Positions 18,649 through 38,135 of a stretch of DNA of 64,000 nucleotides are shown piece by piece. The notes under the pieces were generated by a model. The model had not been told where the DNA came from, did no database searches, and saw only the letters and a list, made by a program, of their open reading frames with translations. Positions within the stretch are counted from its first letter, which is position 1; every line of letters begins with the position of its first letter. A program made the translations under genes and the position numbers. The stretch is taken from the IMG/VR virus record IMGVR_UViG_3300021256_000062, positions 64,001 through 128,000 of that record, one strand, 5' to 3'. Origin of the DNA: a virus (lineage: Duplodnaviria > Caudoviricetes).

Positions 18649-19281
18649 TTAAGATTGTGAAACAAACTCTACTGATTCCATATCATCTGGTAAATGAGGG
18701 ATTGCTCTATCATATTCGATTGTTGCTGTAATTTCTCTCTTACCATCATCATCAGATGAGAATTCATTTTCATCTAATTTTGAAATCCATACACCATACA
18801 TATCCCAATATCTAATCATTCTATGGTCTGGAGTATATTCAATTAATTTTGCTTGAATCTTATAATCTTCTGCTCTACCTACTGATTCATCTTCAACGTG
18901 TGCAGCAAGTCCTCTCCATGCTTGTAAAATTCCTTTAGTATTTGCACCAATATAATCGTTAAATTTAAATGAACCAGAATCATAAGTAATTGCACCTGCA
19001 AATTTTACAGTACCATTACCTCTTTTAACTTCAATTACATTTTGAGTAAAATTAGGAACTGAAGCTGAACTTACTGATAATCTAATTACTTCTTGTGCAA
19101 TATCTGCTTTAAATTGTTCATAGTCAGACGCATTTGCTCTTTCAGCACCTAAAGCAATTAATGTATCAGTGAAGATAGGCATAAACACAAAGTTATTACT
19201 TCTTGCAGGAGTATATAACTCAGGATGCATTGCAATATGATATGTTCCTAAAATATCTGTTGATTTATTTTTACTTGGCAT
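18649..19281 (-). CDS. tail tube protein (gp19-like)
   Basis: VKFAGAITY, FNDYIG, WDMYGVW, ITATIEYDRA; follows sheath. Confidence 0.85.
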   Translation of the reverse strand: MPSKNKSTDILGTYHIAMHPELYTPARSNNFVFMPIFTDTLIALGAERANASDYEQFKADIAQEVIRLSVSSASVPNFTQNVIEVKRGNGTVKFAGAITYDSGSFKFNDYIGANTKGILQAWRGLAAHVEDESVGRAEDYKIQAKLIEYTPDHRMIRYWDMYGVWISKLDENEFSSDDDGKREITATIEYDRAIPHLPDDMESVEFVSQS

Positions 19282-19299: not shown

Positions 19300-20799
19300 C
19301 TATTCTTCAGTGACAGTGAATGAGTCAACTAATTCTACTAATAAATTAAATTTTTCAACTGCTTCAATTGGAATAATACTAATTACGGCTGCAAGTGTAG
19401 CCTTAACTGCAGTATCCACTTTAATCATCTTATAATCTTTAATTCCTTGATTAGTTTTCATAACGTCTAATAGTTGTTGAATTTGTGACTTAAAGTTGAA
19501 CCATAATCTATCACTATTTTGTTCAAACATATAAGCTTTAGAGCTTCTATATAATTGTTTCTTTAAGTCAATTACAAGTTGTCTAATATTTAAGAATGAA
19601 CTTGCAATTAATCCTTGAGATAAAGCATTATCCCATAATGTTCTATTACCCCAAATTAAGATTCCATATGGATTAACTGTTGTGATAGGGTTAACAGCAA
19701 CACCTGTATCTGGAGTTAATAGATTTGCTTTCTTCTCACCATAATTATAAATAGGTGTTCCTTTAATTGTACCTCTTAATCTACCTGCAGTCGCATACCA
19801 AGTAGGATTATCTTCAACTGAATTAATAAATGCATCTAGATAAGCAACTGATGCTGGTAATGTAATATCACTACCACTTATTGGATATTTACACCAAGGA
19901 CTAAACATTGCAGCATATTTAGATGTAACTAATTGTGCAGACGCTAGTACACTACCTACATCTGTCAAGTCATAAGGATGGTCTAATAATAATAGACAAT
20001 CTCCTCTTTCAGCTACTATTGTTTGTAATTTACTAATTGCAGCTGATACTGTTCCACCTGCAATATAATATACACGTCCTGCAGATGCAGTTTGACTATC
20101 ATCTAATACATATTGGCCATTTTGATTTTGATAGAAGAATTTTCCAGCTTCATACTCAACTTTAACATAGTATTCTCTATCTGCATTAAATTCACCATTG
20201 TCTAACACCCACGCTGGAGTTGTTATATCATAATAATAATATTTTGATGGTTGATATGATAATACATCAACATTTGCAGCTACATAGTAGCATTCAAATG
20301 CATGACTTAAATCTTCAGTATATCCTGCAGGTGAACCTGTAACATTAGTAAATGTTTTAATATTTGTATAATTTGGATTAGGTGCAGTTATATATCCACC
20401 TAATGTTAAGAATCTAACATCATATAATCCTTTATCATCTAAATCATCATAAAATGACTCTTGACTTAAAGCTTCCTTTAAACCATCATAACTTGTATAA
20501 GGCCCACCATTATTAGATGGTGATTTATATAATACTTTAAATCCACTATTCAATAAGAATTTTGCAGTAAGATATCCAGGGTCTCTTGTTATATTATTTG
20601 TACTAAATGGTGCTTCACCATCACTATATACTGGACATTCACCAAAATTCTCAACTAATTCATCCGCATTATTAAGTAATACGAATTTATCTAAATTAGA
20701 ATTTAATCTACTTCCACCTGGAACAAATACTACATAATCTTGTTCAGCTGATAAACCTGCAGAAGTATTGTCTCTTTCTCTAATATCAATAACAGGCAT
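19300..20799 (-). CDS. tail sheath protein (gp18-like)
   Basis: PTWYATAGRLRG, VNPI, WGNRTL, LNIRQL, FEQN motifs. Confidence 0.9.
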   Translation of the reverse strand: MPVIDIRERDNTSAGLSAEQDYVVFVPGGSRLNSNLDKFVLLNNADELVENFGECPVYSDGEAPFSTNNITRDPGYLTAKFLLNSGFKVLYKSPSNNGGPYTSYDGLKEALSQESFYDDLDDKGLYDVRFLTLGGYITAPNPNYTNIKTFTNVTGSPAGYTEDLSHAFECYYVAANVDVLSYQPSKYYYYDITTPAWVLDNGEFNADREYYVKVEYEAGKFFYQNQNGQYVLDDSQTASAGRVYYIAGGTVSAAISKLQTIVAERGDCLLLLDHPYDLTDVGSVLASAQLVTSKYAAMFSPWCKYPISGSDITLPASVAYLDAFINSVEDNPTWYATAGRLRGTIKGTPIYNYGEKKANLLTPDTGVAVNPITTVNPYGILIWGNRTLWDNALSQGLIASSFLNIRQLVIDLKKQLYRSSKAYMFEQNSDRLWFNFKSQIQQLLDVMKTNQGIKDYKMIKVDTAVKATLAAVISIIPIEAVEKFNLLVELVDSFTVTEE

Positions 20800-21842: not shown

Positions 21843-22703
21843 TTATAAATCCTTTATTTGGTTTAAATATGTCTTTAAATCTTTTAATAATTCTTTATCT
21901 CCACTTATTTTACTTAATAAATTATCTAATTTATCTTTATCTTGAATTTCTTCCTTATTGTCTTTCTTAATATTTCTAGATAATAATGAAACATTCTTTC
22001 TAATTTCTTGTTCAGTTCTCATTAATTTATTAATTTTATTTGGAGTTGGTTTTGCACCATCATAATATAATACAAGATTAACCAATTCTCTATAACTAGG
22101 TTTAGATGAATCTACAAATTGATGTCCAACACTATCACCTGAAAATGTAATTAATCTAGGAGTTCCATCTTGATTTTCAACATCTTGATATTCACTAACT
22201 AATCTTCTACTTTCATAATCATCAGTTAAGTATGCCCAAACATCAATTACATAATCTTGTTTTCTCTCATTATCATCATAGAATTCTGAGTCCTCTAAAA
22301 CACTTGCCCTAGTTCCATCCATTAAAGATTTATTAGTTAGTACATTATTAGAGTATTTATTGTTTATTATTGCCAACTCATTATAAGTGGGCTTTATGTT
22401 AACTCTATTTAAATACTCTAAATAATTAATGAAAGGATTACTATTTTTATTTAATGTTTTAAATGCTGACACCCAATTACCAATTAAATTCATAGAAGAT
22501 TCATCATCTACAAGATATGATAAATTTTTAAGATTATTTATAATGTAATAAGAAACTACTTTATTAATATCTTCTGGAGCACCTGTAATTGCTTTTTGTA
22601 ATGCACCTTCATAATCATTTCTTTGTACTAAATCATAAATATCAGTACTTGTAAATTCTTGTTCAGTAGGAAGACTTGCTTCAGTTAAAATCAATTTATT
22701 CAT
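21843..22703 (-). CDS. hypothetical protein, possible internal head protein
   Basis: N-terminal MNKLILTEA carries the LxE motif. Confidence 0.6.
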   Translation of the reverse strand: MNKLILTEASLPTEQEFTSTDIYDLVQRNDYEGALQKAITGAPEDINKVVSYYIINNLKNLSYLVDDESSMNLIGNWVSAFKTLNKNSNPFINYLEYLNRVNIKPTYNELAIINNKYSNNVLTNKSLMDGTRASVLEDSEFYDDNERKQDYVIDVWAYLTDDYESRRLVSEYQDVENQDGTPRLITFSGDSVGHQFVDSSKPSYRELVNLVLYYDGAKPTPNKINKLMRTEQEIRKNVSLLSRNIKKDNKEEIQDKDKLDNLLSKISGDKELLKDLKTYLNQIKDL

Positions 22704-23218
22704 TATGTATCTTCCTCCACTAATAAATTAAATGTATCTTGTGAATGAGATAATTGACTTCTGTCAAAATTATCTATATATTCAGGAACTATCTTACATG
22801 CAACTGAAGCTGGGTAAATCATTATTCCACTGATATCTACTACTCTAAATACTCTTCCCTTTGTATTATCAAATCCACTTGGAACAATGAATAATGCTCC
22901 TTGTTGCAAATTCTCTAAATCATATGGAACGTGTATAACTGAAGCATCTTCTTGTCTTTCAGAATTCCATCCTAATAATTTAGTAGTCTTTTGTGTAGGG
23001 TGTTCTTCAAAGATACATCCTACAACTTTAGGAGAACTGTAACTAGATATCAATTCTCCTTGTGTAGTATATTGTTTATTTTGATTAATAGGAGTTTTGT
23101 ATAAACAATTTACTCCCATTAATCTAACCATTTCTTTGAACCATTGTCTATGTAACTTAATATCAGGAGTTAATAATTTCCCATAACTATCTCTTGATGT
23201 GATATAATTTTCATCCAT
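22703..23218 (-). CDS. neck/head-closure protein (gp14-like)
   Basis: FKEMVRLMGVNCLY; synteny with gp13- and gp15-like genes. Confidence 0.6.
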   Translation of the reverse strand: MDENYITSRDSYGKLLTPDIKLHRQWFKEMVRLMGVNCLYKTPINQNKQYTTQGELISSYSSPKVVGCIFEEHPTQKTTKLLGWNSERQEDASVIHVPYDLENLQQGALFIVPSGFDNTKGRVFRVVDISGIMIYPASVACKIVPEYIDNFDRSQLSHSQDTFNLLVEEDT

Positions 23219-23244: not shown

Positions 23245-26200
23245 TTATTTTCTTCTATTAGAAACTTTACCACGAATATTTCTAGAATTTCCATCTACTT
23301 TAACTTTATAATCAAAGTTTAAACTTTCTGATAATAGTTTTTTATTTTCAACTGTACAGTTTAATGTGAATGCTTTTTTATTCTTAGCAAATGTTTCATT
23401 AATACCTTTGTATTGTAATTTATTTTCTTTTTGAGATGACTTTTCAAATAAGAATTTAGTTTCTTTTGTTTTTCCATTCTTATATGTTAATAATCCTTCA
23501 AGAATTAAATTACCTTTTTCTGATTTACAATTAGATAATTTGAAATCTTTTACATTTTCATAAACTGAAATACAATATTTATTAACTAGATTTTCAAATA
23601 ATGATTCATCAACATCATCATAAGTATCAGTAGGTTCTAACTCAGATAAGATTTCATAAACTAAATCTGGATTACCTTTTACGAAATTGAAGAATGCATC
23701 TTCTTCAGCTTGTTGTTCTTTAGTACCTCTTGGTAAATCTTCATATCCATCAGTACTTATTGTAATATCTCCAGATTGAACTCTATCTTTAAAGTCATCA
23801 TAAAGAGTATCTTCTAAATCAATGTAACTATATAATTTACCTTTGTATGCAACTTCAGGGTCTGCCCACTCACCATGCCAAATAAATTCAACTTCAGGAA
23901 CACCATAGAATAAATCAGCTTCTACTTCTCCTGTTTCTTGGTTATAATGAGCTTCTAAAAATTTAGATTTCTTTTTAGGAGTTTTATCATCACATCCTTC
24001 AGTTTTACAAGATTCTTTCTTAACACCATAATCAGCTAAAATTTGTTTAGCATTGTCGGCTTTGAATCCATTTTGTTTTAACCAATCTTTAATATGTCTT
24101 AAAGTTGTTTGTGAGTAAGTACCATAAATTACAGGTTTACCATCTTTAATTTCACCAACTAAAGTATCATATGAGAATAATTGATTCTTATCATTATTAT
24201 CTCCTGTATTTACTTGTGCTTTACCATAGAAAGATTTTCTACTATCATATTGTGGTTCTAATCCATAAATAGGTGCTTCAGTTAAACTTTCATTAGTATT
24301 ATCTTGTTCACCATTATCTCCTTTTAAGATTAATTCACAAATATGACCAATATCATTACCAAAATCAAATAATACTTCATCCCAAGTTTCATTTGTTAAA
24401 TCTGCAGGTGATGATACATATTCTTCTAATACTTCCCATTGGTCTGCAATATATGTTAATGCTGAGTCAACTTCTTCAGTTACTACATCATATATAGCAT
24501 TTTCATAGTCTCTAGTTTTTAAATCTTCAAAATCAATTCTATTTAATATTTCGGCAACAATATCTAGGAAATCGAAATTTACTGAATAATCAAAATATTT
24601 ACCAATTATATCTTTATATGGAGATTTTTGTATATCACCTTTAGCTTCTTTTAATTGTTTTGTAAAATTAGGATTTTCAAATCCATATGATTTTAATTCT
24701 TCAACTAATTTTGATTTATCTTCTAAGCTTAATGATTCTTTAATTCTCTTTGAGATTTCAATAAGTTTTTCATCAATAGGTCTTGCCTTTGCAATTTTAA
24801 TTGATTCATTCTTATTTACACCAACTCCATTTTTAACAAGTAAGTCTCTAATTACTGTTGGGTCGGCACCATATACTTCAAATCCATCATACTCCCAACC
24901 TTCGAAATCATCTACAAATCTAGAACTTTCTAGTACACCTAGTACTTCTTCATATTCAGGTTGAGAACTTGTTGTAATAATTGTATTTGCACTTACCTTA
25001 ATTGATTCATTTAATTTATCTTTAGATTCACTAATTGCTTTAGTTACTCTTCTAATAAATCTTTCCTTAATTAATTTCTTTTTAGATTCAGTTAGTGCTT
25101 TAACTTGTTTTTTAGATTCATTGATTTGTTTACCATTTTTCTTTAAAGATTCATCTAAGTCCCATTCAATATTAGTAATTGTAACAGTTCCATCTTTATC
25201 TTCAATATCTAAACCGTTAACTAAATATCCATAAGAATCTGATAAATAATCAGTAACAACATCATTTAAATCATCAGTTTCGGGGTCATAATTTAATTCT
25301 TCATAAGTAACTGTTTCTTCAGTAGGTAATCCTAAATCCTCTAATTTATCTTCATATGATGGTTCTTTTTCATTATAGTAATCTTCAACATCTTGAATCA
25401 TATCTTGGAATAAGTCATCATACATATCAGCTACCACTTGTTGGTCATCAATTACACCATAATGAACACCTAAATCTACAATATCACTTGTGTAGATTAA
25501 TCCATCATCAATTGCACCATTTACAGCATCACTAGGTTCATAACCATCATCTACCCAAGATTTTGCTCTATCAATTAAACTATTTAATACATCATAGAAC
25601 CCCTCTTTTAGTTGTTGAGATTCTTTTAAATTTTCTTTCAATGGTTCAAGATTTCCACTCATTAGTGCTTTAAAATCTTCTTTACTTCCAACTCTATACC
25701 AACAAGGTGCATTTACCGTAGTATTTATATCGTGAACTAATAAGTAATCTTGATTTTCACCATCAGTAAAATACTCAAAATTACCATCATTATATTCTGG
25801 ACCTTGATATTTGTCAAAACCATCCATATCTTTGTAAGAAACTTTATTTCCAGTATATTTACGAATTAGATTTGCAAGATATTTTTTCCAATTAATACCT
25901 TGTTCATCATCTTCCCACTCACCAGTTTCTCTTAATGATTTGTTTTCTTTTAATGGTTCTTCAATAACACTTACTTCTCCAAATAAAACATCTCTTGTTT
26001 CATCATTATCATATTCAGGATGTGCTTTAACATAATCATCAATGAATTCTAATGCAGTTTGAGCATTTCCATCATATACATAGCCTACTTTTTTCTTATA
26101 TTCTTCCCAAGCATTTTGAAAGTCTGCTAATTCGCCATAAGATAAATCTTCTTTAACTGATTTCCCACAACCTTCATCCATATTTCTATTGTGTCTCTCA

Positions 26201-26907
26201 GCTCTAGTTAAGTTTCTTTCTTTTAAATTGTCTTCTTTTTTACTCCCATCGCAAGATTCTTCTTTTGGAGTTACATTAAAAGATTTTCTAACGGCTTTAC
26301 CTACAGTCCCATCTAGACCATATTCTTCTTTTAAATTAGTGGGGATATCTTCTTTTGCATTTTTCATTTTAAAAGATTCTTTTAAAATTTTTCTTGCTTT
26401 TGCTTTTTTAGATAATCCTTCATCTACCTTTTTATCATCTTCATCGGGTTCATCTTCTGAGTCATCATCAGATTCATCGTCATCTAACCAATCAGTTAAA
26501 TCATCTAAATCATCTTCTTCAGTATCAGTTTCTCCACCATAAGGTGCGACTTTACCTTTAACTTCGAATCCATCTTTTTGTTGACAATGTGGACAAGGTT
26601 CACCTACATTAAATAATGTAGGTTCATCTTCACTTTGTTCAACCTCATCTTCATCTTTATAATGAATTGTATGACAAGTAGGGCAGTATAGAAGAAGAGA
26701 ACCTACATAAGTATCTCTTAAATCTTCTTCATCTTCTGCATCTATGTCAACTACCATTTCAATGTCAGATACATCATCAATATCTTCCATTCTTTCTTTT
26801 GCTTTCTTGGCGTCATCTTTGTCGCCTAAATTAAATTTATTTTTCTTTTTGTTTTCTTTGTCATCTAATAAATCTAATTCTTGAAATGCTTCAATTAAAT
26901 ATGACAT
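23245..26907 (-). CDS. giant acidic modular protein (1220 aa), putative head polyprotein
   Basis: More than 20 [LIV]xE[S/N/G/A] linkers; CxxC...CxxC near the N-terminus. Confidence 0.7.
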   Translation of the reverse strand: MSYLIEAFQELDLLDDKENKKKNKFNLGDKDDAKKAKERMEDIDDVSDIEMVVDIDAEDEEDLRDTYVGSLLLYCPTCHTIHYKDEDEVEQSEDEPTLFNVGEPCPHCQQKDGFEVKGKVAPYGGETDTEEDDLDDLTDWLDDDESDDDSEDEPDEDDKKVDEGLSKKAKARKILKESFKMKNAKEDIPTNLKEEYGLDGTVGKAVRKSFNVTPKEESCDGSKKEDNLKERNLTRAERHNRNMDEGCGKSVKEDLSYGELADFQNAWEEYKKKVGYVYDGNAQTALEFIDDYVKAHPEYDNDETRDVLFGEVSVIEEPLKENKSLRETGEWEDDEQGINWKKYLANLIRKYTGNKVSYKDMDGFDKYQGPEYNDGNFEYFTDGENQDYLLVHDINTTVNAPCWYRVGSKEDFKALMSGNLEPLKENLKESQQLKEGFYDVLNSLIDRAKSWVDDGYEPSDAVNGAIDDGLIYTSDIVDLGVHYGVIDDQQVVADMYDDLFQDMIQDVEDYYNEKEPSYEDKLEDLGLPTEETVTYEELNYDPETDDLNDVVTDYLSDSYGYLVNGLDIEDKDGTVTITNIEWDLDESLKKNGKQINESKKQVKALTESKKKLIKERFIRRVTKAISESKDKLNESIKVSANTIITTSSQPEYEEVLGVLESSRFVDDFEGWEYDGFEVYGADPTVIRDLLVKNGVGVNKNESIKIAKARPIDEKLIEISKRIKESLSLEDKSKLVEELKSYGFENPNFTKQLKEAKGDIQKSPYKDIIGKYFDYSVNFDFLDIVAEILNRIDFEDLKTRDYENAIYDVVTEEVDSALTYIADQWEVLEEYVSSPADLTNETWDEVLFDFGNDIGHICELILKGDNGEQDNTNESLTEAPIYGLEPQYDSRKSFYGKAQVNTGDNNDKNQLFSYDTLVGEIKDGKPVIYGTYSQTTLRHIKDWLKQNGFKADNAKQILADYGVKKESCKTEGCDDKTPKKKSKFLEAHYNQETGEVEADLFYGVPEVEFIWHGEWADPEVAYKGKLYSYIDLEDTLYDDFKDRVQSGDITISTDGYEDLPRGTKEQQAEEDAFFNFVKGNPDLVYEILSELEPTDTYDDVDESLFENLVNKYCISVYENVKDFKLSNCKSEKGNLILEGLLTYKNGKTKETKFLFEKSSQKENKLQYKGINETFAKNKKAFTLNCTVENKKLLSESLNFDYKVKVDGNSRNIRGKVSNRRK

Positions 26908-26926
26908 ATTCTAATCTCTCCTTCTA

Positions 26927-29900
26927 TTACTTTTTAATACTATCATCTAAATAACTCATTATTGAACCATATTCTTTTAATGATTCATCTTCTGGATATG
27001 AACCATATAAAACTGATTCATCTTCATCTACAACCTCAGCTGATACAGCATATCCCTTATCAACTAACCAATCACAAACATCTTTTGCTTCATCTAAATC
27101 GGAATATTCACCATAATAATCAGCAATACCCTGGTCTCTTAAAACATCATCTGCCCAATATTTAATTGAGTATTGTGCATCAGAATCATCACTTTCATTT
27201 ATATTTTCTTGAGCTTTTCTTCTCTTTATTTTCATTCTATATTTATTAGCTGGTTTTGTTTCTTTAGAAACCATAACTTTCTTTGCTAATTCATTAGAAT
27301 TTTTAATGTTCTCTTCTTTATCATCAGTTAGTTTGATTTCATCTATATCATCCCAACCATATCCCCAATTTCCTTGTAGAACTTTATATTTATCTTTTTT
27401 CTCAAATAAATTTTCAAATAATTCTTCATCAGTTAATACATCATCAACTAATTCATCTGGATGAACTATATAATAAATTAATGTTATATATGCATTTAAA
27501 TTTTCTTCATCATTTAATTTAACTAATTCATCTAAAATTTCTTCATAAGAATGGTTGTGGTGTAATAATGAATATAAATTATCATATTTTGAATCTGTTT
27601 GACTCAACTCATATGTTTCTTCTTCAAGTGGTCTTAAGATATAGTCATCATAGTACATTGGGTCTAATCTATCCACTGCGCCTACTAAATCTAACTCATC
27701 ATCTTCAATATCACCTAAATTAGCACCTTGATTGTCTCTTAATTTATATACTTCTTCTCCATCTTCATTTTGTGTCTTATAGATTGTAAAATCGAAAGAA
27801 TCAAAGAATTCTGAAGCTGTTAATTTATCAGGTTTATTTGAGTATTTAGCAACTCTCTCATTTAAGTTCTCATCAGTTCTAGGTGCGATGTATTCTAAAT
27901 GACCATAACCTGCATCTTCAGTCTCTTTAAGAGTTTCAAATGGTCCATCTATTTCTTTACCACTACTGTCATCAACAATGTACCAAGCACCATCTTGTTT
28001 TACTCTAATCCAATCTTTTTTGCTTTCCTTTAAGTTTAATTTAACTGGGTAATTACTTTCATACTCTGCAATTAAATCTTTAACTTTTTGGTCATTTAGA
28101 TTTGCTTTCTTTAATGTTTTTACATAATCTGGTGCAGCAACTGTGTGTTGACCATTATGTACATAAGCATCAAAGTTACCTTTTCTATCTCCTATTGATT
28201 TAAATACAATGATTGGTTCACCATCTTCTTCATAATAAATTTTAGCATTTAATTTTTGTACATCTTCTTTTAAGTTTTCATCAATGTATTCTTTACCAGT
28301 ATCTAATAAACATTGCAATCTATCTATTTCTGCTTCAACCTTTTTTGATGCACTACTATCCCCGTGATATTGTTTTTGTAATTTTGAATATTTGTCCACT
28401 AATCGTTGTATTTCATCTTTGATTTTGATTTTACCTTCTTTAAGACTTTCATCAAAATAATCTAAATTATCTGGATTTGCTAAAAAAGTATTATCATAGT
28501 AACCATTATATTTTCTTGGTTTATCTCTCTTGATAGTGAATACTTCTAAGTTACCTTGATAATCTCTATCAACAATGCTTCCTACATCACCAATGTTTCT
28601 TTCACCACCTTTAGACCAACCATCATTATTTACATATTTAACTCTGTCGCCTACTGAAAATACTCTATGAGGTTTTCTATCTTTTATTGGTGCATCTTCT
28701 TTTAAGTTTTCATCTAATGTACCATCATATAACGTTTCAGTATAATCTAATAAACCATTTTCATAATGAACTCTATTGATTATAATATCTCCACCATATT
28801 CATCACTTAATTCTTCAATGATTTCTTCATCTGTTGTGCCGTCAAAATACTCTCCCTCGCCCTCATCGAAATATTTAATAGTTTCACCATTACCATCAAC
28901 TACCTCAATTTGAGTATAACTATCATCCAAATTTAAACTTTCATTAGTTAACTTTGATTTAATTTTAAATCTTTCAAGTTCACTATCTTCATCATATACA
29001 TCAAATTTAGTATTAAATAGTTTTACCATCTCATTAAAGTCTTCTGGGAAAGTACTTATTGAACATTCATTTGAACTAACTAACCCAGTAACTTTAACAT
29101 CTTTATTATTTTCTTTTGCAAATTTCTTTGCATCATTAATTAGATTTTGTGTATCATCTAAAGTTTCTTTTACATTTTTATTCTTAACTAAATAAGTAAT
29201 GTCACTTACTTGTTCAACTCTATCTTTATATTTCTTGAACATTCTATCTTGTTCTTCTTTAGTTTTTGCAACATATGGATTTGAACCATCCTCAAATTTA
29301 AATTGAATCCATTTTTCATTTATAGATTCATTAACACTTCTGACTCTACTAAATTGAGAGTCAGCTGCATTAATTAATTCTTCTTCAGTTGCGTCCATTC
29401 CTAAAGTTTTAGCAAGTTTAACAAGTTCTCCTGGAGTTCCCTTAACTAGGTAATTTCCTCTAACTTTATCATATTCTAAACCTAAATCTTTTAATTGATT
29501 TTCATCAATTTCATTATTTAGTACAAAGAATCCTAATTTATTTGATTTATTTTCCTTTAATGATTCATCAGTATCATCATTCTCAGATTCATTGTCATTT
29601 CCTAAATTTCTACCAAATACTTGGAAATTAACTGCATATGGACTTCTACCATGTTTAGCATCAAATACAAATTCACCATCAGGATATTTAGCAAGTAAGT
29701 CTTTTAATATTTTATCAGGACTATCAACTCTACCATATAATCCATTTTCAAAATTGTCTCCAACTACTTCAAATCCTTTAGATTCGAAATCACTTTGGTC
29801 AAGACAAGTATTTGCTCTTCTTGGATTATTAATTAGATTATCTAAATAATCGTCTGGATTTTGTTTAATACAAGCCTCACAGTAAATACCATCATTATCT

Positions 29901-32080
29901 ACAATACCATAATCATCAGGATTACTTGAACCAAAATCAATTAATTCTCCACAACCATAACAAGCTGTAAACATATCTGAGAATCCCCATTTATCATCAA
30001 GGATTTCATCTAATTTTCTAGTATCAGTATCACTCTTTGGTTCATAATCAGGTGCTAAGAATTTTTGTAATTCAATTGCTTCATCCCAACTATCCACAAT
30101 GAAGAATGGTTCTTCATCATCATATGCTACATTTAAATTAGGGAATGCATCTAATACTTTAGAATAAGTTTCTCCATCTAAACTTTCTTTAACATTTTTC
30201 TTCTTTGATGTAAATAGTTTTGATTTATCAATAACTGATTCTTTAAAACAATTTCTACATGCTTTTTTATTAGTTGATTCATTTAATTTAAAGAATGGGT
30301 CAAATAAATCTTTACTAATCTTTTTATATGTTTGTTCAGTTAAATTATCTTCCATTAAATCTTTAGCCTTTTTAACTACCTTAGCTAAGTCATCAAATTC
30401 ATCATAAATTGTATCATCTTCAATATCAATTACTTCTTGTAATTTATCATTCATTTCATATAATGATTTATTTAAAGTACCTCTAATGAAATCACCAGCT
30501 TCTCCTTCAGTCATTGTTTCAGGAGTACCATCATATTCAGCTAAGTCAGTAACTACAATTCCTCTTGCAGATGTCCAATTACTTATCTTATCTTGAATAC
30601 TTTGTAATTTTTGTCTAATATTATTTTCAGATGTATTATTTACATTTTCAGTTACTTGTTTTGCACATTCTTCTACAACTTTATATTGACTCTTATCTTT
30701 ATTTGATGTGTACTTTGTTAAGTAGTCAATGATTTGATTTGCATCATTGAATTTACTATAATCTTGAACCATATTTGCATTTCTTACTTGTGCATCATAA
30801 TTAGATTTTGGAGTTCCCTTATATTTACCATTCTCTTTATAGATTACATAAGTTACCTTATCATCTAGGGATTCTCTTTTTGATTTTCTAACTTTTACTT
30901 TATCTTCAGGTTTAATTTCAATTTCATCTAATTCAGTTCCAGCTGTTGCAATTGCTTTTTGACCTGCATATTTAACTTTTCTATCTTGTCTAATTTTATT
31001 TAGAAGTTCTTTATTTGTTTTATAATTATTACTTGAGAATTTGTATTCATCATTTACATAAACATCTCTTTTTGCAAATGCTTCTTCAACATCTTCTTCA
31101 TCATATTTATATTGTTTGTCATAATCTCTTTCCCAAACAACACCTTCATCATATTCATCAATTACATCTTCAGACTCAAAGTCACTCACTAATGCAAATT
31201 GCAATTGTCTATGTGTTACTGAAATTCCCCTATTCTTCTTAGCGTCTGCAATTGCTTCTTCTTTAGTTTCAAAGTATTCTTCAGTTCCATCATCATATTC
31301 TACAATATATTCATCTTGCCAATCTTCTCCGGTAACTGCAAGGTCAATATCATTAATAACTCTTTCATTTTGAATTGTGATAGTAAATGTATTAGTGTCA
31401 CATCCATATGGGTCTTTTTCAACATCATTATAATCACCGCTGATTTCTCCTGTAAATGTTGAATGTGACCATCCACCACCTAATCCACAATCAAATTCAA
31501 ACTCATTATAATATTTAACTATTTGTTCAGGACTTTCTCCTTTAAATTCACTTTCCCAATAAGTAAAATTTAATTCAATTGTAGCTGGGATTGCAGCACC
31601 ATCTACTATATCTCTTCCATAATAATAAGAACTAGCACTTACATTTTCAATATCACAATTTGCAGTGGCAGTTACTGTAATTTCATTTTCTCCATATTTA
31701 TTTGTTTCTGATTTAGTATCTAATATTTTAATATCTCTTAAACTAGAAACTGAACCTTTAACACTATATCCTGCACCAGGACCTTCTCTTAATGGTTTTT
31801 TACTTTCCACTAATTTACCACCACATACTGTATTACAAATAGATTCAACTAATTTGTTTATTTCATTTGATTTATTAATCATTACTTTAATTGTATCTCT
31901 ATTTAATTTAGATGTCCAACTTTTATCATCATCACATGCATTTAATGATTCTACAATTGCATCAACTTTATCATTAATATTTAATGAGTATTTAACTTCT
32001 TTTAAACTTTCAGTTAATTTTGATTTTAGTAAATTCTTATTTGATATCATTTTCTTTTTCTCCTTATTAATCGTAAACAT
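26927..32080 (-). CDS. giant acidic modular protein (1717 aa), putative head polyprotein
   Basis: About 20 ESLKE/ENLKE-type linkers separating short domains. Confidence 0.7.
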   Translation of the reverse strand: MFTINKEKKKMISNKNLLKSKLTESLKEVKYSLNINDKVDAIVESLNACDDDKSWTSKLNRDTIKVMINKSNEINKLVESICNTVCGGKLVESKKPLREGPGAGYSVKGSVSSLRDIKILDTKSETNKYGENEITVTATANCDIENVSASSYYYGRDIVDGAAIPATIELNFTYWESEFKGESPEQIVKYYNEFEFDCGLGGGWSHSTFTGEISGDYNDVEKDPYGCDTNTFTITIQNERVINDIDLAVTGEDWQDEYIVEYDDGTEEYFETKEEAIADAKKNRGISVTHRQLQFALVSDFESEDVIDEYDEGVVWERDYDKQYKYDEEDVEEAFAKRDVYVNDEYKFSSNNYKTNKELLNKIRQDRKVKYAGQKAIATAGTELDEIEIKPEDKVKVRKSKRESLDDKVTYVIYKENGKYKGTPKSNYDAQVRNANMVQDYSKFNDANQIIDYLTKYTSNKDKSQYKVVEECAKQVTENVNNTSENNIRQKLQSIQDKISNWTSARGIVVTDLAEYDGTPETMTEGEAGDFIRGTLNKSLYEMNDKLQEVIDIEDDTIYDEFDDLAKVVKKAKDLMEDNLTEQTYKKISKDLFDPFFKLNESTNKKACRNCFKESVIDKSKLFTSKKKNVKESLDGETYSKVLDAFPNLNVAYDDEEPFFIVDSWDEAIELQKFLAPDYEPKSDTDTRKLDEILDDKWGFSDMFTACYGCGELIDFGSSNPDDYGIVDNDGIYCEACIKQNPDDYLDNLINNPRRANTCLDQSDFESKGFEVVGDNFENGLYGRVDSPDKILKDLLAKYPDGEFVFDAKHGRSPYAVNFQVFGRNLGNDNESENDDTDESLKENKSNKLGFFVLNNEIDENQLKDLGLEYDKVRGNYLVKGTPGELVKLAKTLGMDATEEELINAADSQFSRVRSVNESINEKWIQFKFEDGSNPYVAKTKEEQDRMFKKYKDRVEQVSDITYLVKNKNVKETLDDTQNLINDAKKFAKENNKDVKVTGLVSSNECSISTFPEDFNEMVKLFNTKFDVYDEDSELERFKIKSKLTNESLNLDDSYTQIEVVDGNGETIKYFDEGEGEYFDGTTDEEIIEELSDEYGGDIIINRVHYENGLLDYTETLYDGTLDENLKEDAPIKDRKPHRVFSVGDRVKYVNNDGWSKGGERNIGDVGSIVDRDYQGNLEVFTIKRDKPRKYNGYYDNTFLANPDNLDYFDESLKEGKIKIKDEIQRLVDKYSKLQKQYHGDSSASKKVEAEIDRLQCLLDTGKEYIDENLKEDVQKLNAKIYYEEDGEPIIVFKSIGDRKGNFDAYVHNGQHTVAAPDYVKTLKKANLNDQKVKDLIAEYESNYPVKLNLKESKKDWIRVKQDGAWYIVDDSSGKEIDGPFETLKETEDAGYGHLEYIAPRTDENLNERVAKYSNKPDKLTASEFFDSFDFTIYKTQNEDGEEVYKLRDNQGANLGDIEDDELDLVGAVDRLDPMYYDDYILRPLEEETYELSQTDSKYDNLYSLLHHNHSYEEILDELVKLNDEENLNAYITLIYYIVHPDELVDDVLTDEELFENLFEKKDKYKVLQGNWGYGWDDIDEIKLTDDKEENIKNSNELAKKVMVSKETKPANKYRMKIKRRKAQENINESDDSDAQYSIKYWADDVLRDQGIADYYGEYSDLDEAKDVCDWLVDKGYAVSAEVVDEDESVLYGSYPEDESLKEYGSIMSYLDDSIKK

Positions 32081-32774
32081 ATGTTAATTGAGAATTAATT
32101 CTCAATGTCTCTCTTAAATTATCTAAATCAGTTTGTCCTTCTTCAAGAAGTTGTTCACCGTCATTCTCCCAAAGTGAATTTGCAAGTTTATATCTAGTTC
32201 TAACTCTACCTACATATAATTTTGTTAATGCAATACAATATCTAACTAGTATATCAATCCAATAATCACTTTTAACATCATCAACATCTAATAATTTAGG
32301 TACACATTCAAGTGTAATATACACTGGATTATCTAATGTATTAATGTATATTTTCTTTTCTGAACTATCCCATACAAATGCTAAGTCAGTTGATATAGTA
32401 TTTCTTATTTGTAATTTTGTGTTCCAAGCACCAAATCTCTCGGTAAAATCATTCAAGTTATATAAGTTATATCCATTACTGAATAGAAGAAATGCTGAAG
32501 CATAAAATGGGTCTAAAGCACCACCTCTATATGCATCTCCATCTCCATAACTTGAAGTTCTAAATACTCTAGATACTGAACTGATATTACTATCTTTTAA
32601 ATCTATACATTTAGAGTATGGCACTGTAATAAATTTAGTGGAGTCTATATATCTTTGAAGTTCTCTCAATGCTTTATCAATTATTTGATTTAATGTTTTA
32701 TCATCTAACTCCAATTCTAAAATGTTAGCAGTTAGTTCTAATCTAATTTCGGAAATTATTTCTTCTCTTGTCAT
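32067..32774 (-). CDS. neck/head-tail adaptor (gp13-like)
   Basis: LELELDDKTLNQIIDKAL...WIDILVRYCIALTKLYVGRVRTRY...DGEQLLEEG. Confidence 0.8.
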   Translation of the reverse strand: MTREEIISEIRLELTANILELELDDKTLNQIIDKALRELQRYIDSTKFITVPYSKCIDLKDSNISSVSRVFRTSSYGDGDAYRGGALDPFYASAFLLFSNGYNLYNLNDFTERFGAWNTKLQIRNTISTDLAFVWDSSEKKIYINTLDNPVYITLECVPKLLDVDDVKSDYWIDILVRYCIALTKLYVGRVRTRYKLANSLWENDGEQLLEEGQTDLDNLRETLRINSQLTYVYD

Positions 32775-33875: not shown

Positions 33876-33949
33876 TGGCAGGGGCGGAGAGATTCGAACT
33901 CCCGTTGATGGTGTTGGAGACCATAGTCCTACCACTGAACGACACCCCT
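33876..33949 (-). tRNA. tRNA-Trp(CCA)
   Basis: Cloverleaf; loop CTCCAAC; encoded CCA. Confidence 0.92.
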
Positions 33950-33950
33950 A

Positions 33951-34330
33951 TGGTGGAGATGAGGGGAATTGAACCCCTGTATTGAAATCAGTCCATTTGA
34001 CTTTCTACATATTATCTTATTTATGTCCTCGTACAAATTACATCATCAGTAAATAAGCAAATTAGAAATGTAATTCAATTAGTTTCTATGGTCATTTCGA
34101 TTTCCTTTCGACTACTAATAAATGCAAAGTTCATCTACCCCTATATCGATTAACTACTAATTAGTATAGGTATCCTAATTTTCGTTTCCTAATTTATCTA
34201 ATTAGGCAAATGCATATGCTCTAGGAGCATTGTTTAAAGTTGCGGTTATTTAAACCTCGACGTTGATAACCCAGTCTACTGGATATGCTTATCATCTTTC
34301 ATAACTCCAAGCGAATCCATAAACATCCCC
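33951..34330 (-). ncRNA. ssrA: tmRNA, tag (A)TLNNAPRAYAFA*
   Basis: GGGGATG 5' end; T-arm and CATCTCCACCA 3' end; ATAACC-GCA resume site; tag ORF 34243-34202. Confidence 0.92.
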
Positions 34331-34343
34331 ATATTTAATTTAT

Positions 34344-34418
34344 TGGCGGGTCCTGAGAGATTCGAACTCCCCTATGGCAGCTTAACAGGCTGCTGCCCAA
34401 CCACTAGGCCAAGGACCC
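34344..34418 (-). tRNA. tRNA-Asn(GTT)
   Basis: Cloverleaf; loop CTGTTAA. Confidence 0.9.
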
Positions 34419-34835
34419 TTTTAATATATTATCAATTAAATAATCTTTTTCATACTTAATATTTGATTTTTGACCATTTTTTGGGTTATCATATCTAATA
34501 TTAAGTCCACTTGTAGGTGCATCATCAATACTGATTAATAAAATAACATCTCTTGTTACATTATAACAAGCGAAATAATCAATTTCAGTAGCATTATAAA
34601 TATGTCTAACACCTTTTGTACAATGAAGAGTTGATGATACTAAACTAAATTTCATAACTCCATTCTCAGCTTTAACTGATGTTTTAACTTGGATTTTATT
34701 TAATTTACCATTAAATTCTGCAATTAAGTCAGCCTTTTCATTATCACCGAAAGGTACATAAACAGGTATACCTAACTCCACAAATTTACATAATACTTTA
34801 GCCTCTCCAATATTCCCTATTGACTTACTATTCAT
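34404..34835 (-). CDS. free-standing PD-(D/E)XK homing-type endonuclease (I-Ssp6803I-like family)
   Basis: GNIGEAKV...PFGDNEKADLI...KIQVKTS...IDYFACY; start revised to MNSKS. Confidence 0.8.
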   Translation of the reverse strand: MNSKSIGNIGEAKVLCKFVELGIPVYVPFGDNEKADLIAEFNGKLNKIQVKTSVKAENGVMKFSLVSSTLHCTKGVRHIYNATEIDYFACYNVTRDVILLISIDDAPTSGLNIRYDNPKNGQKSNIKYEKDYLIDNILKGSLA

Positions 34836-34855
34836 AATGTTACTCCTAATTATAA

Positions 34856-34932
34856 TGGTTCCACCTAGCGGACTCGAACCGCTCATCTACCGCGTGAAAG
34901 GCGGGTGTCTTAACCAACTCGACTAAGGTGGA
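34856..34932 (-). tRNA. tRNA-Glu(TTC)
   Basis: Cloverleaf; loop CTTTCAC. Confidence 0.9.
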
Positions 34933-34970
34933 ATATACTGATTATCTTTTACAATAATCAAAAATATTAA

Positions 34971-35046
34971 TGGTGGACAGGCTTGGAATCGAACCAAGAT
35001 ATCTAGTTCTTCAGACTAGCGCACAGACCACATATGCCATCTGTCC
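34971..35046 (-). tRNA. tRNA-Phe(GAA)
   Basis: Cloverleaf; loop CTGAAGA. Confidence 0.88.
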
Positions 35047-35047
35047 A

Positions 35048-35124
35048 TGGTCTCCTAAATTGGATTTGAACCAATACTTTGTAAGGTTTGAGCTTACTAC
35101 CTCTTCCAATTGGGTTATTAGGAG
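35048..35124 (-). tRNA. tRNA-Leu(CAA), short variable loop
   Basis: GTAAG CTCAAAC CTTAC. Confidence 0.85.
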
Positions 35125-35130
35125 TTGTAA

Positions 35131-35206
35131 TGGAGGTCTCTCTCGGATTTGAACCGAGGTTCATGGTGTTGCAGACCATTGCCTTAATCCACTTGGCTAA
35201 GAGACC
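35131..35206 (-). tRNA. tRNA-Cys(GCA)
   Basis: Cloverleaf; U73. Confidence 0.92.
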
Positions 35207-35211
35207 TATAT

Positions 35212-35288
35212 TGGTGGACCCTACAGGACTTGAACCTGTGACAACTCGGTTATGAGCCGAGAGTTCTAACCAACTGAACTAAAGGTCC
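35212..35288 (-). tRNA. tRNA-Ile2(CAT), lysidine type (or elongator Met)
   Basis: GGACCTT acceptor and CGG CTCATAA CCG resemble Firmicutes Ile2. Confidence 0.8.
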
Positions 35289-35294
35289 ATTTAC

Positions 35295-35363
35295 TAGATA
35301 CATATTATAATCGGACAAATTTTCAGTTCGTAGATTTTAATAGTAATTTGCTGTTAGTATCTA
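35295..35363 (-). ncRNA. ACAGCAA-stem RNA copy 2, carrying a Phe(GAA) anticodon stem-loop
   Basis: TAGATAC-TAACAGCAA...ACGAA CTGAAAA TTTGT...GTATCTA. Confidence 0.7.
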
Positions 35364-35603
35364 AATGTTCCTAATATTCTTTTAATGATGTATGATAGAT
35401 TGCAACACAATTGATGATTTATTTTTGCAAGTCACTTTCTCTATCAATTACTGATACACAATCCTTCATCATACATCCTGCATATTTTTAAATAATTTTC
35501 TTCATTGTAGTTGTTCTTTTAAATATTTATAAATTATTTGCAGTTCGTGACTTAATGTGATTTTGTTTAAAATTGTTCACCAACAACTTTTCATTATTAA
35601 ATA

Positions 35604-35679
35604 TGGTGAGTCCGACGAGGTTCGAACTCGTGACCCCATGATTAAAAGTCATGTGCTCTACCAGCTGAGCTACGGACTC
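35604..35679 (-). tRNA. tRNA-Lys(TTT)
   Basis: Cloverleaf; CATGA CTTTTAA TCATG. Confidence 0.93.
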
Positions 35680-35683
35680 ATCT

Positions 35684-35760
35684 TGGCACACCGTAAGAGA
35701 TTCGAACTCCTAACTTATCGCTTAGAAGGCGATTACTCTAATCCGTTGAGTTAACGGTGT
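35684..35760 (-). tRNA. tRNA-Arg(TCT)
   Basis: Cloverleaf; loop CTTCTAA. Confidence 0.92.
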
Positions 35761-35771
35761 ATTCACATATT

Positions 35772-35800
35772 ATTATACAACATATTTATTTAATTGTCAA
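35772..35800 (-). promoter_or_regulatory. sigma70-type promoter for a tRNA block
   Basis: TTGACA-17-TATAAT. Confidence 0.85.
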
Positions 35801-35838
35801 GTAGGACTAATTTAATAGCCCTACTTTTATTATTACAA

Positions 35839-37062
35839 TTAAATTAAATAGTGAATATTCTTTCCATAACTTCTCTTAAATACTAAATATTTTATTCCTT
35901 TAGAGATTAGAATATTATTCTTACATCTATTGTAATTATCCTTATAAGTTGTTACAGCATTCTTATATTCATCTTCATTCTCAAAATCACATCTATCTGG
36001 TTGATAGATTGATTCTTTACGTAATTCACTTGAAACCAATTCATCATAGTCTATATGTAAATCATTAGAATTAATGATATTTAACATCAACTTTGTGTCA
36101 AACTGAATATCTTGTGTATTAAATCTTATATAGTAACCATCGTAATCATAACAAGCATCTTGTTCACTAAATATATCTAGTCTTAATTTTGAAGTTGTTG
36201 TTTGTGTACCATCATTTAATATTGCATAAACATTGTAATAAACAGGTTCAATATTCACAATATTTAAATCTTTAATGGCTTCTTCAAATGGTATTCCTTG
36301 AGATAATTCAAATGATATTGCTCTTAAACAATCATAGTTTATATCAACTTTATTTGCGAAATTAATTACTTTAGATATTTCACCATAATATTTAGGTTCT
36401 AATTTATCTTCCATATATTCTCTAATTTCATCAGCTGTAGGATAATCAAATCTAAAATGATAATGAAATCTACCAGGTCTATTGATTAAGAAATCATTTA
36501 AACCATTTAAATCATTACATGTTACTACAAATAATTTCTTACTATTTGCAAGACCATCAAATAAAGTTAATAATGTAGTTTGGGAACTTGATGATGAGCC
36601 ATCTCTATCTTCATCTGTAAATTTCAAATTACCTCTACCACTTTGAGCTTGTGCAAAAGTTTTATCAAATTCATCAAATAAAACTACACACTCTTGTTCA
36701 ATTTCAGTTAGGTAATCAGCTATACCTGGGATATACTTATTAACAACTATAACAGGTAAGTTTTCCTCTAAAGATTTTTTTGCAATTAATTTTGCACAAA
36801 TTGATTTTCCTATTCCCTTATCTCCTGATAAAATAACACCAAGATTTCTGTTCATAAGTTTATAGGCATTTAATACCTTATTTACTTTAGATAAATGTGG
36901 ACCATAAATCTTTTCATTAACATCAATCATTGGATAAAGTTGTAAGAAAAATCCAGATAATGGAGAGAATTCTACAGTATAACACTTATTAGGTAATACA
37001 TCATAAGTTCTCAAATCATCATCATAAATTCTGTAAATATTTCCTGTATTTACAATTTTCAA
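35839..37062 (-). CDS. AAA+ ATPase
   Basis: Walker A GDKGIGKS, Walker B LFDEFDK, SRH INRPGRF. Confidence 0.9.
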   Translation of the reverse strand: MKIVNTGNIYRIYDDDLRTYDVLPNKCYTVEFSPLSGFFLQLYPMIDVNEKIYGPHLSKVNKVLNAYKLMNRNLGVILSGDKGIGKSICAKLIAKKSLEENLPVIVVNKYIPGIADYLTEIEQECVVLFDEFDKTFAQAQSGRGNLKFTDEDRDGSSSSSQTTLLTLFDGLANSKKLFVVTCNDLNGLNDFLINRPGRFHYHFRFDYPTADEIREYMEDKLEPKYYGEISKVINFANKVDINYDCLRAISFELSQGIPFEEAIKDLNIVNIEPVYYNVYAILNDGTQTTTSKLRLDIFSEQDACYDYDGYYIRFNTQDIQFDTKLMLNIINSNDLHIDYDELVSSELRKESIYQPDRCDFENEDEYKNAVTTYKDNYNRCKNNILISKGIKYLVFKRSYGKNIHYLI

Positions 37063-37085
37063 TTAAATCACCCTTTCATTTTTTA

Positions 37086-37162
37086 TGGTGCCATCTCTGG
37101 GATTCGAACCCAGACTTAAGGGCTTTTAAGACCCTTGCCTCTGCCAATTGGGCTAAGGTGGC
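37086..37162 (-). tRNA. tRNA-Leu(TAA), short variable loop
   Basis: AGGGT CTTAAAA GCCCT. Confidence 0.85.
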
Positions 37163-37168
37163 ATTTAT

Positions 37169-37245
37169 TGGTTCGCCAAAGTGGATTTGAACCACTGACC
37201 TCTCGATTATCGGTCGAGTGCTCTAACCAACTGAGCTACTGGCGA
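37169..37245 (-). tRNA. tRNA-Ile(GAT)
   Basis: Cloverleaf; loop CCGATAA (C33). Confidence 0.88.
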
Positions 37246-37248
37246 ATA

Positions 37249-37377
37249 TGGTACCCACAAAAGGACTTGCACCTAATACTGTATTGCGTTCATCTCGGTG
37301 GCCATCTCCAAGATTCATCCTCATCTCCTTATTTCAGTTTGCAACCATCCATAAATCAATGTGACTATAACGTGAGC
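37249..37377 (-). ncRNA. 129-nt tRNA-like RNA (acceptor stem, T-like arm and CCA; non-tRNA interior)
   Basis: GCTCACG.../TGTGGGT-A-CCA; AGG TGCAAGT CCT; internal ATCTTGG/CCGAGAT hairpin. Confidence 0.55.
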
Positions 37378-37391
37378 ATATATAAGTTTAA

Positions 37392-37481
37392 TGGCGGTGC
37401 GTGTAGGATTTGAACCTACGGGTGGAGAACCACCGCCGGTTTTCAAGACCGGTGCAATAAACCAGACTCTGCCAACGCACC
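37392..37481 (-). tRNA. tRNA-Ser(TGA)
   Basis: Long variable arm; loop CTTGAAA. Confidence 0.92.
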
Positions 37482-37488
37482 ATCTATT

Positions 37489-37564
37489 TGGCGACCCCAG
37501 TGAGACTTGAACTCACGACACCGGCGTGACAGGCCAGCATTATAACCAGCTTAACTATGAGGCC
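37489..37564 (-). tRNA. tRNA-Asp(GTC)
   Basis: Cloverleaf; loop CTGTCAC. Confidence 0.92.
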
Positions 37565-37620
37565 AAAAATAACTTGGTATCTTCCTAACCATGGCTTGTG
37601 TAGATACCAGAACCGTAACC

Positions 37621-37729
37621 TGGTGGATGAAGACAAGAATTTCACTTGCAAAGACCTTTAATTAACTAGTATACTGTATCAGTCACCATTGTTACAGAAT
37701 GGCTACTTTTTATAATTGTATATTCATCC
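37621..37729 (-). ncRNA. oversized atypical tRNA-Tyr(GTA)-like RNA
   Basis: GGATGAA/TTCATCC-A-CCA; CCATT CTGTAAC AATGG; ~35-nt variable region; T loop TGAAATT. Confidence 0.6.
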
Positions 37730-37750
37730 ATTTACTAAATATTAAATTAA

Positions 37751-37827
37751 TGGTCGGAGTAGCAGGATTCGAACCTGCGACGTCTAGTTCCCAAAACTAG
37801 TGACCTAACCAGCTGGCCTATACCCCG
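37751..37827 (-). tRNA. tRNA-Pro(TGG)
   Basis: Cloverleaf; loop TTTGGGA. Confidence 0.92.
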
Positions 37828-38036
37828 ATATTATAAAGATTTCCCTGTTTTATATCTCTATCAATCCCAATGACTCATACTACATTTTCCGAAATTTTAT
37901 AAACACTCTCATCTAAACTACTACCAATGCTTAATGGTTCAGTTGTAACGTACTCTCAACGTTATATTACCAACTATATCTGTCTTTATCTTTTTCAACC
38001 CATATTTTACAGCCAGGACTATAGCTATTTAATTAT

Positions 38037-38122: not shown

Positions 38123-38135
38123 ATATTATTTATTT

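Follow-up and report, generated by a model that had tools for sequence, protein, structure and literature searches.

Giant mosaic proteins in the neck operon of an uncultured phage carry prohead-protease-type linkers and may represent capsid-cargo polyproteins

Giant genes of the neck operon and their content

The window analyzed here is the whole stretch of 64,000 nucleotides (nt) comprising bases 64001–128000 of IMG/VR record IMGVR_UViG_3300021256_000062, a single 158,917-bp contig (about 159 kb, GC content 26–33%) of an uncultured, rumen-type phage. A first-pass annotation of this DNA had drawn attention to two giant open reading frames (ORFs) of 1220 and 1717 amino acids (aa), here designated P0001 and P0002, as possible polyproteins cleaved by the prohead protease. 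Both ORFs are real and are located at 23245–26907 and 26927–32080 on the minus strand, which is the strand of all large ORFs in the window. The first-pass annotation had placed them in the neck operon, where they are flanked by the head-tail adaptor on one side and by the neck and sheath genes on the other. The order of this late structural operon is adaptor, P0002, P0001, four small ORFs, sheath, tube and hub protein. The adaptor, the giants and the next gene are tightly packed with spacings of 16–26 nt, and a promoter and terminator scan, whose counts were at chance level, revealed no minus-strand terminator-like site inside the operon. The giants thus sit among virion and late genes, a feature expected of the phage polyvalent proteins to which we return below. 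The true start of P0002 is most likely Met11 (window position 32050), since its homologs and the corresponding ESM Atlas record begin there.

The acidic character ascribed to both proteins is borne out by Asp plus Glu fractions of 0.23 for P0001 and 0.22 for P0002. Only these two giants had been named initially, and both bear the linker motif described below, but the phenomenon extends to P0005 with six motifs and P0006 with one, two further giants encoded closer to the head genes. Along the strand, the genes are arranged in the order portal, protease-scaffold fusion, capsid, P0005, P0006, a phrog_850 protein, 27 tRNAs and a transfer-messenger RNA (tmRNA), a phosphoesterase and the late operon (Table 1).

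Database searches returned little for these proteins. Pfam gave no match in P0001, P0002 and P0005 at E ≤ 0.01 to 0.1, and scans with Pfam, PHROGs and PADLOC found nothing in P0002 or P0005 and only phrog_4264, a family with no annotated function, in P0001. P0006 is composed of a nucleotidyltransferase domain, an ART-PolyVal domain and further modules. An embedded peptidase was not found in the giants by Pfam, and MPTase-PolyVal (PF18818) is absent from the genome in a search in which a control genome gave a match. Neither megablast of the region nor tblastn of P0002 identified a similar record among 50,697 phage records, and a related-locus search found no locus related to P0001. P0001 matches phage records solely via one small module, in Firmicutes phages.

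Comparison with orthologs separates the giants into two architectural classes. In class I, represented by P0002, a conserved leader of about 80 aa is followed by variable modules. Although it was outside the query of the homology search, the leader recurs at the very N-terminus of eight further giants, one of them the ortholog in G004, the closest relative. In class II, represented by P0001, the N- and C-terminal domains (about 200 and 117 aa) are retained in the G004, G001 and P0158 orthologs while the interior is reshuffled, and the slot occupied by the giants is variable in G004 and G001. A comparison of orthologs at linkers had been suggested in the first-pass annotation. The phrog_4264 module of P0001 (residues 875–968) is 83% identical in the G004 ortholog but has been relocated there to residues 318–411, and 121 records of cultured Firmicutes phages have it as a small gene of its own; from these homologs of one module, the host is probably a low-GC Firmicute. 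Moreover, the G004 ortholog of P0001 contains an ART-PolyVal module homologous to that of P0006, and the G004 ortholog of P0002 contains P0005 modules. As modules recur across loci and in the G004 orthologs, the giants draw on one common module pool. The G004 sequence (L017/L018) is a fragment in which contig positions 32022–42918 hold ORFs of 2396 and 1242 aa upstream of the head genes; the 2396-aa ORF harbors ART-PolyVal-like segments homologous to P0006.

A recurrent linker at the module borders

The first-pass annotation had described the giants as strings of unrelated modules separated by a recurring linker, and both parts of this description hold. BLASTP detects no similarity within or between the four giants (E < 0.01), and internal duplication could thus be ruled out as the source of the modules. 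To quantify the linker we defined a strict motif, E-[SN]-[LI]-x-E, and derived expected counts from 500 composition-preserving shuffles. The motif occurs 10 times in P0002 (0.30 expected), three times in P0001 (0.26 expected) and six times in P0005 (0.21 expected), and not one of the 500 shuffles attained the observed count for any of these three proteins. P0001 and P0002 together harbor 13 strict motifs and the four giants 20, whereas the proteome outside the giants contains 11 where 5.4 are expected. When the 3- to 5-mers of the four giants are all ranked blind to the motif, ESL, LKE, LKES, ESLK and ESLKE come first, with ESLKE present seven times versus 0.02 expected (about 300-fold).

The motif is specific in the order as well as in the identity of its residues. 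Permuted motifs are found zero to one times and the reversed motif six times in the four giants, compared to 20 occurrences of the real motif; together with the shuffles this rules out an artefact of low complexity or composition. Although Asp is as common as Glu in the giants, it replaces Glu only once at P1 and twice at P5. The Ser at P4 is encoded variously by AGT, TCA and TCT, which indicates that the peptide is under selection and not a repeat in the DNA. A DNA-level repeat or recombination box was therefore rejected as origin of the motif, the Ser codons belonging to different codon families.

A logo built from 125 unique motif instances of this phage and its homologs extends the motif on both sides. 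Upstream, an acidic run from P13 to P8 precedes a hydrophobic residue at P7 (60%) and D, E or N at P6. The core consists of E at P5, S or N at P4, L or I at P3, K at P2 (60%) and E at P1, and it is followed by S, D, A or G at P1′ in 69% of the instances. The logo amounts to a tandem h-x-E/L-x-E site.

Do these linkers mark the borders of the modules? The first-pass annotation had named in advance a mismatch of motifs and domain boundaries as the outcome that would speak against it. We found a BLAST alignment end within 8 aa of 62 of the 90 motif sites (69%) as compared to 30% of random positions, considering sites in homology-covered regions; the nominal binomial p of 2e-14 has to be read with the relatedness of the proteins in mind, as the sites are not independent. 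A phmmer search with P0002 residues 518–1717 against 1.84 billion representatives returned 468 matches, all of which are local and cover one module each, and the module edges coincide with motifs. Residues 640–825, within module A, have more than 100 standalone counterparts with a length of about 200 aa, and residues 1409–1555 correspond to entire standalone proteins of 122–147 aa (P0016, P0049 and P0070). A 183-aa protein is in part homologous to the stretch from ENINE to the final ESLKE. Overall, standalone proteins equal to single modules span 122–199 aa. Other giants retrieved in the search (P0007, P0009, P0010, P0044 and more) differ in their sets of modules, and each of their junctions reads ESLKE, ENLKE, ESLEE or ESLNE. 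Variants of x-L-K-E also flank module A in many proteins with an identity of only 30–40%.

The same arrangement is seen in the IMG/VR relative L001, in which this motif brackets the modules that it has in common with P0002. The start of one L001 protein falls exactly where P0002 and P0010 read P-L-R-E|G-P-G-A-G-Y, immediately after this site of P0002. At positions 16995–18677 of L001 we further noted a 560-aa mosaic with a BspA-like leucine-rich-repeat block and a 50-aa module; the latter lies between ESLQE and ESLKE and is common to P0006 residues 498–565.

Structure models agree with the borders drawn from sequence. Module A, modeled from 77 sequences, is predicted to be a compact single domain (mean predicted local distance difference test, pLDDT, 93.3) that spans from joint to joint and carries a CxxC..CxxC insert. 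A structural comparison per module had been suggested at the outset; for module A it thus delivered a compact fold but no relative, neither in the PDB by Foldseek (best E 0.52) nor in a wide VIA-align search (best Z 4.2), and the ESM Atlas contained only unnamed clusters (best 0.84). The model of P0002 residues 1100–1717 shows confident domains with all seven motifs in or at the edge of low-confidence gaps: five lie in segments with a pLDDT below 50 and the other two within about five residues of one. This placement is consistent with cleavable joints, if weakly so when taken alone. Breakpoints, standalone homologs and structure models together establish that the joints coincide with the module borders.

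The prohead protease and a possible route for the giants

A protease with a suitable specificity is encoded in the same window. P0003 matches Peptidase_S77 (PF03420) with an E value of 2.5e-17 (63.4 bits, cut-off 27) and the structure of T4 gp21 (5JBL) with 5.8e-10, and its residues His80, Ser137 and Asp164 align with the positions of the gp21 triad, in agreement with the gp21-like protease described in the first-pass annotation. In T4, cleavage by gp21 follows L/I-x-Glu and is blocked when P1 is Asp (PMC9026906). The linkers of the giants fit this rule: their sites are of the L/I-x-Glu type with 20 Glu and one Asp at P1.

The presumed canonical substrates of the enzyme carry sites of the same type, namely in the capsid propeptide, the scaffold and the C-terminal junction of the protease. 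In the capsid protein, YLTE at residues 45–48, which had been pointed out before and probably constitutes the propeptide cleavage site, is kept as FLSE and FMNE at about residue 48 of the relatives. The coiled-coil scaffold part fused to the protease contains eight [LIM]-x-E-[SAG] sites versus 1.8 expected (z 4.8); the earlier claim that the linker motif fills the scaffold is hence correct for this simpler pattern and not for the strict motif, which is absent. At the junction of protease and scaffold, the sites V-K-E|S and L-R-E|S-L are kept in four phages, and V/I-x-E|S(G) and L-x-E|S-L come next after the protease domain in this phage and its relatives. Across the genome, the generic [LIM]-x-E-[SAG] pattern is most enriched in P0001 (z 7.0), P0005 (5.7), the protease-scaffold protein (4.8), a 720-aa protein (4.5) and P0002 (3.5), and these five fall among the six highest of 104 proteins. 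The 720-aa protein is likewise acidic (Asp plus Glu 0.24), is encoded at genome positions 13951–16113, about 50 kb upstream of window base 1, and contains one strict motif; it may be a fifth cargo polyprotein. An S77 protease is found in three out of three relatives whose records include head genes. As judged from sequence, the S77 enzyme is the only recognized protease of matching specificity in the phage.

Based on the mosaic architecture, the motif statistics, the coincidence of joints and borders, the family of the protease and the T4-type sites in its canonical substrates, we consider the giants to be probably a variant of the polyvalent proteins, namely capsid-cargo polyproteins that are targeted by a leader and that the prohead protease cleaves in trans. 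In this view, each giant consists of a conserved carrier part and a series of unrelated modules that fold independently and measure about 45–200 aa, with every joint reading h-[DEN]-E-[SN]-L-x-E and then a small residue. The 1717-aa type has as its carrier the leader of about 80 aa, the 1220-aa type its N- and C-terminal domains. The carrier part would direct the chain to the prohead and its scaffold core, where the scaffold-fused, Glu-specific serine protease would cut the joints after L-x-E and, concurrently, trim the capsid propeptide and shred the scaffold. The folded modules would be too big for the pores of the shell and would therefore stay in the head, enter the host with the DNA and act there as early effectors, among them the ADP-ribosyltransferase and the nucleotidyltransferase. 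The first-pass interpretation is thus partly supported: all of its parts that sequence can test hold, and presence of the giants in the prohead, their cleavage, release and injection are predicted from them.

Several observations weigh against this proposal. The breakpoint statistics draw on related proteins, so that the sites are not independent, and the model of residues 1100–1717 has a mean pLDDT of 63.9 with only five of seven sites inside segments below 50. The scaffold itself does not possess the strict E-S-L-x-E motif, L-x-E is short and the extended motif could have another purpose. The relatives with an S77 protease all belong to one lineage, and their co-occurrence with the giants is no independent test. 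Most modules have no recognizable function, effector identity by homology being limited to the ART-PolyVal and nucleotidyltransferase modules in the sister giant P0006 and an ortholog. Strongly acidic proteins are, moreover, unusual as cargo co-packaged with DNA. Finally, the prohead proteases of T4, phiKZ and SPN3US mostly strip propeptides and leave one mature product (PMC9026906, PMC10052503, PMC5694885), and in the literature searched there is no description of a single chain that releases at least 10 separate cargo modules at uniform joints.

The main rival to the cargo-polyprotein reading is that the giants are polyvalent proteins which are delivered or used intact, E-S-L-x-E being a structural joint such as a helix cap or spacer that spreads with the exchanged modules. 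Transfer without processing has precedents in N4 virion RNA polymerase, ArdC and TraC1 (PMC5512222), and the motif is often predicted to be helical at domain edges and is often included in the homologous segments. A passive joint would, however, need neither Glu over Asp at two positions nor a fixed order, a small P1′ residue and a hydrophobic P7, and the capsid propeptide and the scaffold junction follow the same rule. Likewise, the varying codons speak against spread as a DNA recombination box. Hence, we regard intact use as unlikely.

Cleavage of the joints could also take place elsewhere or by another enzyme, be it a Glu-specific host protease, another phage protease or an activity met after injection, and no passage through the prohead would then be needed. 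Processing after injection has been considered for polyvalent proteins (PMC5512222), and the motif-bearing P0005 and P0006 are encoded outside the neck operon. Yet no peptidase is detected by Pfam in the giants, no MPTase-PolyVal exists in the genome and no recognized protease besides the S77 enzyme matches in specificity, whereas the late-operon position and the conserved leader favor entry into the prohead; we therefore hold this route for quite improbable. We consider it very improbable that the 1220-aa type is an external appendage of the virion, for instance a neck whisker, a collar or a decoration protein, that is attached by its conserved ends and displays a hypervariable region: its conserved termini, variable middle and neck-gene neighbors do recall T4 fibritin, given the established T4 gene order, but its interior consists of unrelated globular modules without coiled coil, including an ADP-ribosyltransferase in the G004 ortholog, its modules are common to giants at other loci and its joints bear the protease-type motif.

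To a further-reaching version of this reading we give about even chances: with the trans-acting prohead protease as a polyprotein-processing enzyme, any module placed between two E-S-L-x-E joints behind a conserved leader might be loaded, released as a small protein of its own and injected in a plug-and-play fashion, and the lineage would trade modules freely at the joints, both among loci and among genomes. The specificity of the head protease would then serve as a 'cargo code' private to these phages, and module A and the numerous other modules whose fold matches nothing known would represent a large untapped set of early anti-host effectors. More generally, the cargo-polyprotein reading would imply that the polyprotein strategy of RNA viruses has a counterpart in tailed phages, which would deliver numerous small proteins together with their DNA by means of the capsid-maturation protease that they already possess. 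It would provide a sequence rule for spotting capsid cargo in uncultured phages, flag dozens of uncharacterized modules as candidate anti-defense or host-takeover factors of early infection and offer a model from nature for packing several proteins into one phage head. Artificial loading of proteins into phage heads has already been achieved with the capsid-targeting sequence of T4.

The remaining genes around the giants were annotated alongside. The 27 tRNA genes and the tmRNA (tag peptide ATLNNAPRAYAFA) at window positions 33876–39524 separate the head genes from the neck operon, and a 407-aa AAA-type ATPase (phrog_2376, 1.6e-99) is encoded within the tRNA array at 35839–37062. A 543-aa protein at 39999–41630 matches phrog_850 ('RNA-binding protein') at 7e-113, and beside its gene about 1.3 kb (41650–42950) are devoid of ORFs longer than 62 aa. 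The very acidic 217-aa protein encoded at 42978–43631, for which no family match was found, is kept as a 210-aa ORF in L001 (9521–10153) beside the mosaic proteins of that phage; that it may be a DNA-mimic-like anti-restriction protein is a guess.

Table 1. Window coordinates of the giants, their modules and strict motifs, the prohead protease with its canonical substrates, and neighboring structural genes
Feature	Window position	Strand	Remark
Portal	62028–63911	minus	
Protease-scaffold fusion P0003, 510 aa	59912–61444	minus	
Peptidase_S77 (T4 gp21-like) protease domain of P0003	60905–61444	minus	
Coiled-coil scaffold part fused to protease	59912–60904	minus	
Major capsid protein	58378–59898	minus	
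YLTE, capsid residues 45–48	59755–59766	minus	probable propeptide cleavage site (predicted)
Third giant P0005, 1360 aa	47187–51269	minus	
P0005 strict motifs			residues 525, 626, 698, 866, 1042, 1265
Fourth giant P0006, 979 aa	43703–46642	minus	
ART-PolyVal domain (PF18760), P0006 residues 355–507	45122–45580	minus	E 1e-13, 52.7 bits, cut-off 31.2
P0006 strict motif			residue 561
Head-tail adaptor (phrog_211, Ad2)	32067–32774	minus	directly upstream of giants
Giant P0002, 1717 aa	26927–32080	minus	class I: conserved N-terminal leader, then variable modules
Leader of P0002, residues 11–100 (about 80 aa)	31781–32050	minus	candidate capsid-targeting part
ESLKE, P0002 residues 24–28	31997–32011	minus	within leader; full motif not kept in homologs
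Module A, P0002 residues 636–832	29585–30175	minus	>100 standalone homologs
ESLKE, P0002 residues 839–843	29552–29566	minus	immediately after module A
ESINE, P0002 residues 918–922	29315–29329	minus	sharp homology breakpoints at residues 916, 919
ENLKE, P0002 residues 1124–1128	28697–28711	minus	start of beta-rich module common to L001
ESLKE, P0002 residues 1211–1215	28436–28450	minus	breakpoint 1212; in low-pLDDT gap
ENLKE, P0002 residues 1268–1272	28265–28279	minus	breakpoint 1272
ENLNE, P0002 residues 1404–1408	27857–27871	minus	
Module between ENLNE and ENLFE, P0002 residues 1409–1555	27416–27856	minus	model pLDDT 93–97
ENLFE, P0002 residues 1556–1560	27401–27415	minus	
ENINE, P0002 residues 1625–1629	27194–27208	minus	P0029-homologous module begins here
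ESLKE, P0002 residues 1699–1703	26972–26986	minus	
Giant P0001, 1220 aa	23245–26907	minus	class II: conserved N- and C-terminal domains, shuffled interior
P0001 conserved N-terminal domain, residues 1–225 (about 200 aa)	26233–26907	minus	acidic, zinc ribbon
ENLKE, P0001 residues 425–429	25621–25635	minus	
ESLTE, P0001 residues 873–877	24277–24291	minus	
phrog_4264 module, P0001 residues 878–968	24004–24276	minus	
ESLFE, P0001 residues 1101–1105	23593–23607	minus	immediately before conserved C-terminal domain
P0001 conserved C-terminal domain, residues 1102–1220 (about 117 aa)	23248–23604	minus	
First gene downstream of P0001/P0002 pair	22703–23218		
Sheath	19300–20799		
Tube	18649–19281		

Relation to known systems

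Among cultured phages, the closest backbone is that of Thornevirus, i.e. Bacillus phage SP-15 and Listeria phage LIS04, with 26% identity of the capsid protein and 26–29% of the protease-scaffold protein and with genes that likewise run from portal through protease, capsid, neck and sheath to tube. In LIS04, however, no giants intervene between the gene of the neck protein and the structural gene that follows it.

In phiKZ, 201phi2-1 and SPN3US, many head-internal proteins are cut after Glu by a diverged gp21 homolog, with several cuts per chain (PMC10052503, PMC5694885). The motif of phiKZ and SPN3US is S/A/G-x-E, whereas P3 is Leu or Ile in the giants, and in those phages propeptides are shredded to leave one mature C-terminal product of proteins that are not shuffling mosaics. 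A tblastn search of P0002 against the 50,697 phage records gave no homology to the ejection-protein families of phiKZ or SPN3US.

The internal proteins IPI-III and Alt of T4 are comparable in the S77 family of the protease and in the L/I-x-Glu rule (PMC9026906). In T4, short N-terminal sequences target cargo into the core, and Alt, an ADP-ribosyltransferase, is packaged, cut by gp21 and ejected (PMC9026906); a corresponding N-terminal targeting, cleavage and ejection is what we propose for the giants. The T4 proteins have no sequence homology to the giants and are single proteins that lose a short propeptide, whereas at least 10 products per chain are proposed here. Further differences are the extended tandem h-x-E-S-L-x-E motif and a leader predicted to fold over about 80 aa in place of a 10-residue targeting sequence.

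A further resemblance is to the polyvalent proteins of Iyer, Burroughs, Anand, de Souza and Aravind (2017), which are encoded by phages and conjugative elements, are predicted to be packaged and injected and for which an analogy to viral polyproteins has been drawn (PMC5512222). Like these, the giants are large mosaics of unrelated domains beside virion genes, and the ART-PolyVal domain (PF18760) in P0006 and in the G004 ortholog of P0001 groups them with this class. They differ in that P0001, P0002 and P0005 are without any Pfam domain. Processing of polyvalent proteins is predicted to occur via embedded zincin-like MPTase or C-terminal assemblin-like peptidase domains (PMC5512222), whereas no embedded peptidase was detected in the giants, the joints of which instead match the separate S77 prohead protease, predicted to act in trans. 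If this prediction is correct, it would explain how polyvalent proteins that have no peptidase of their own are resolved into working parts.

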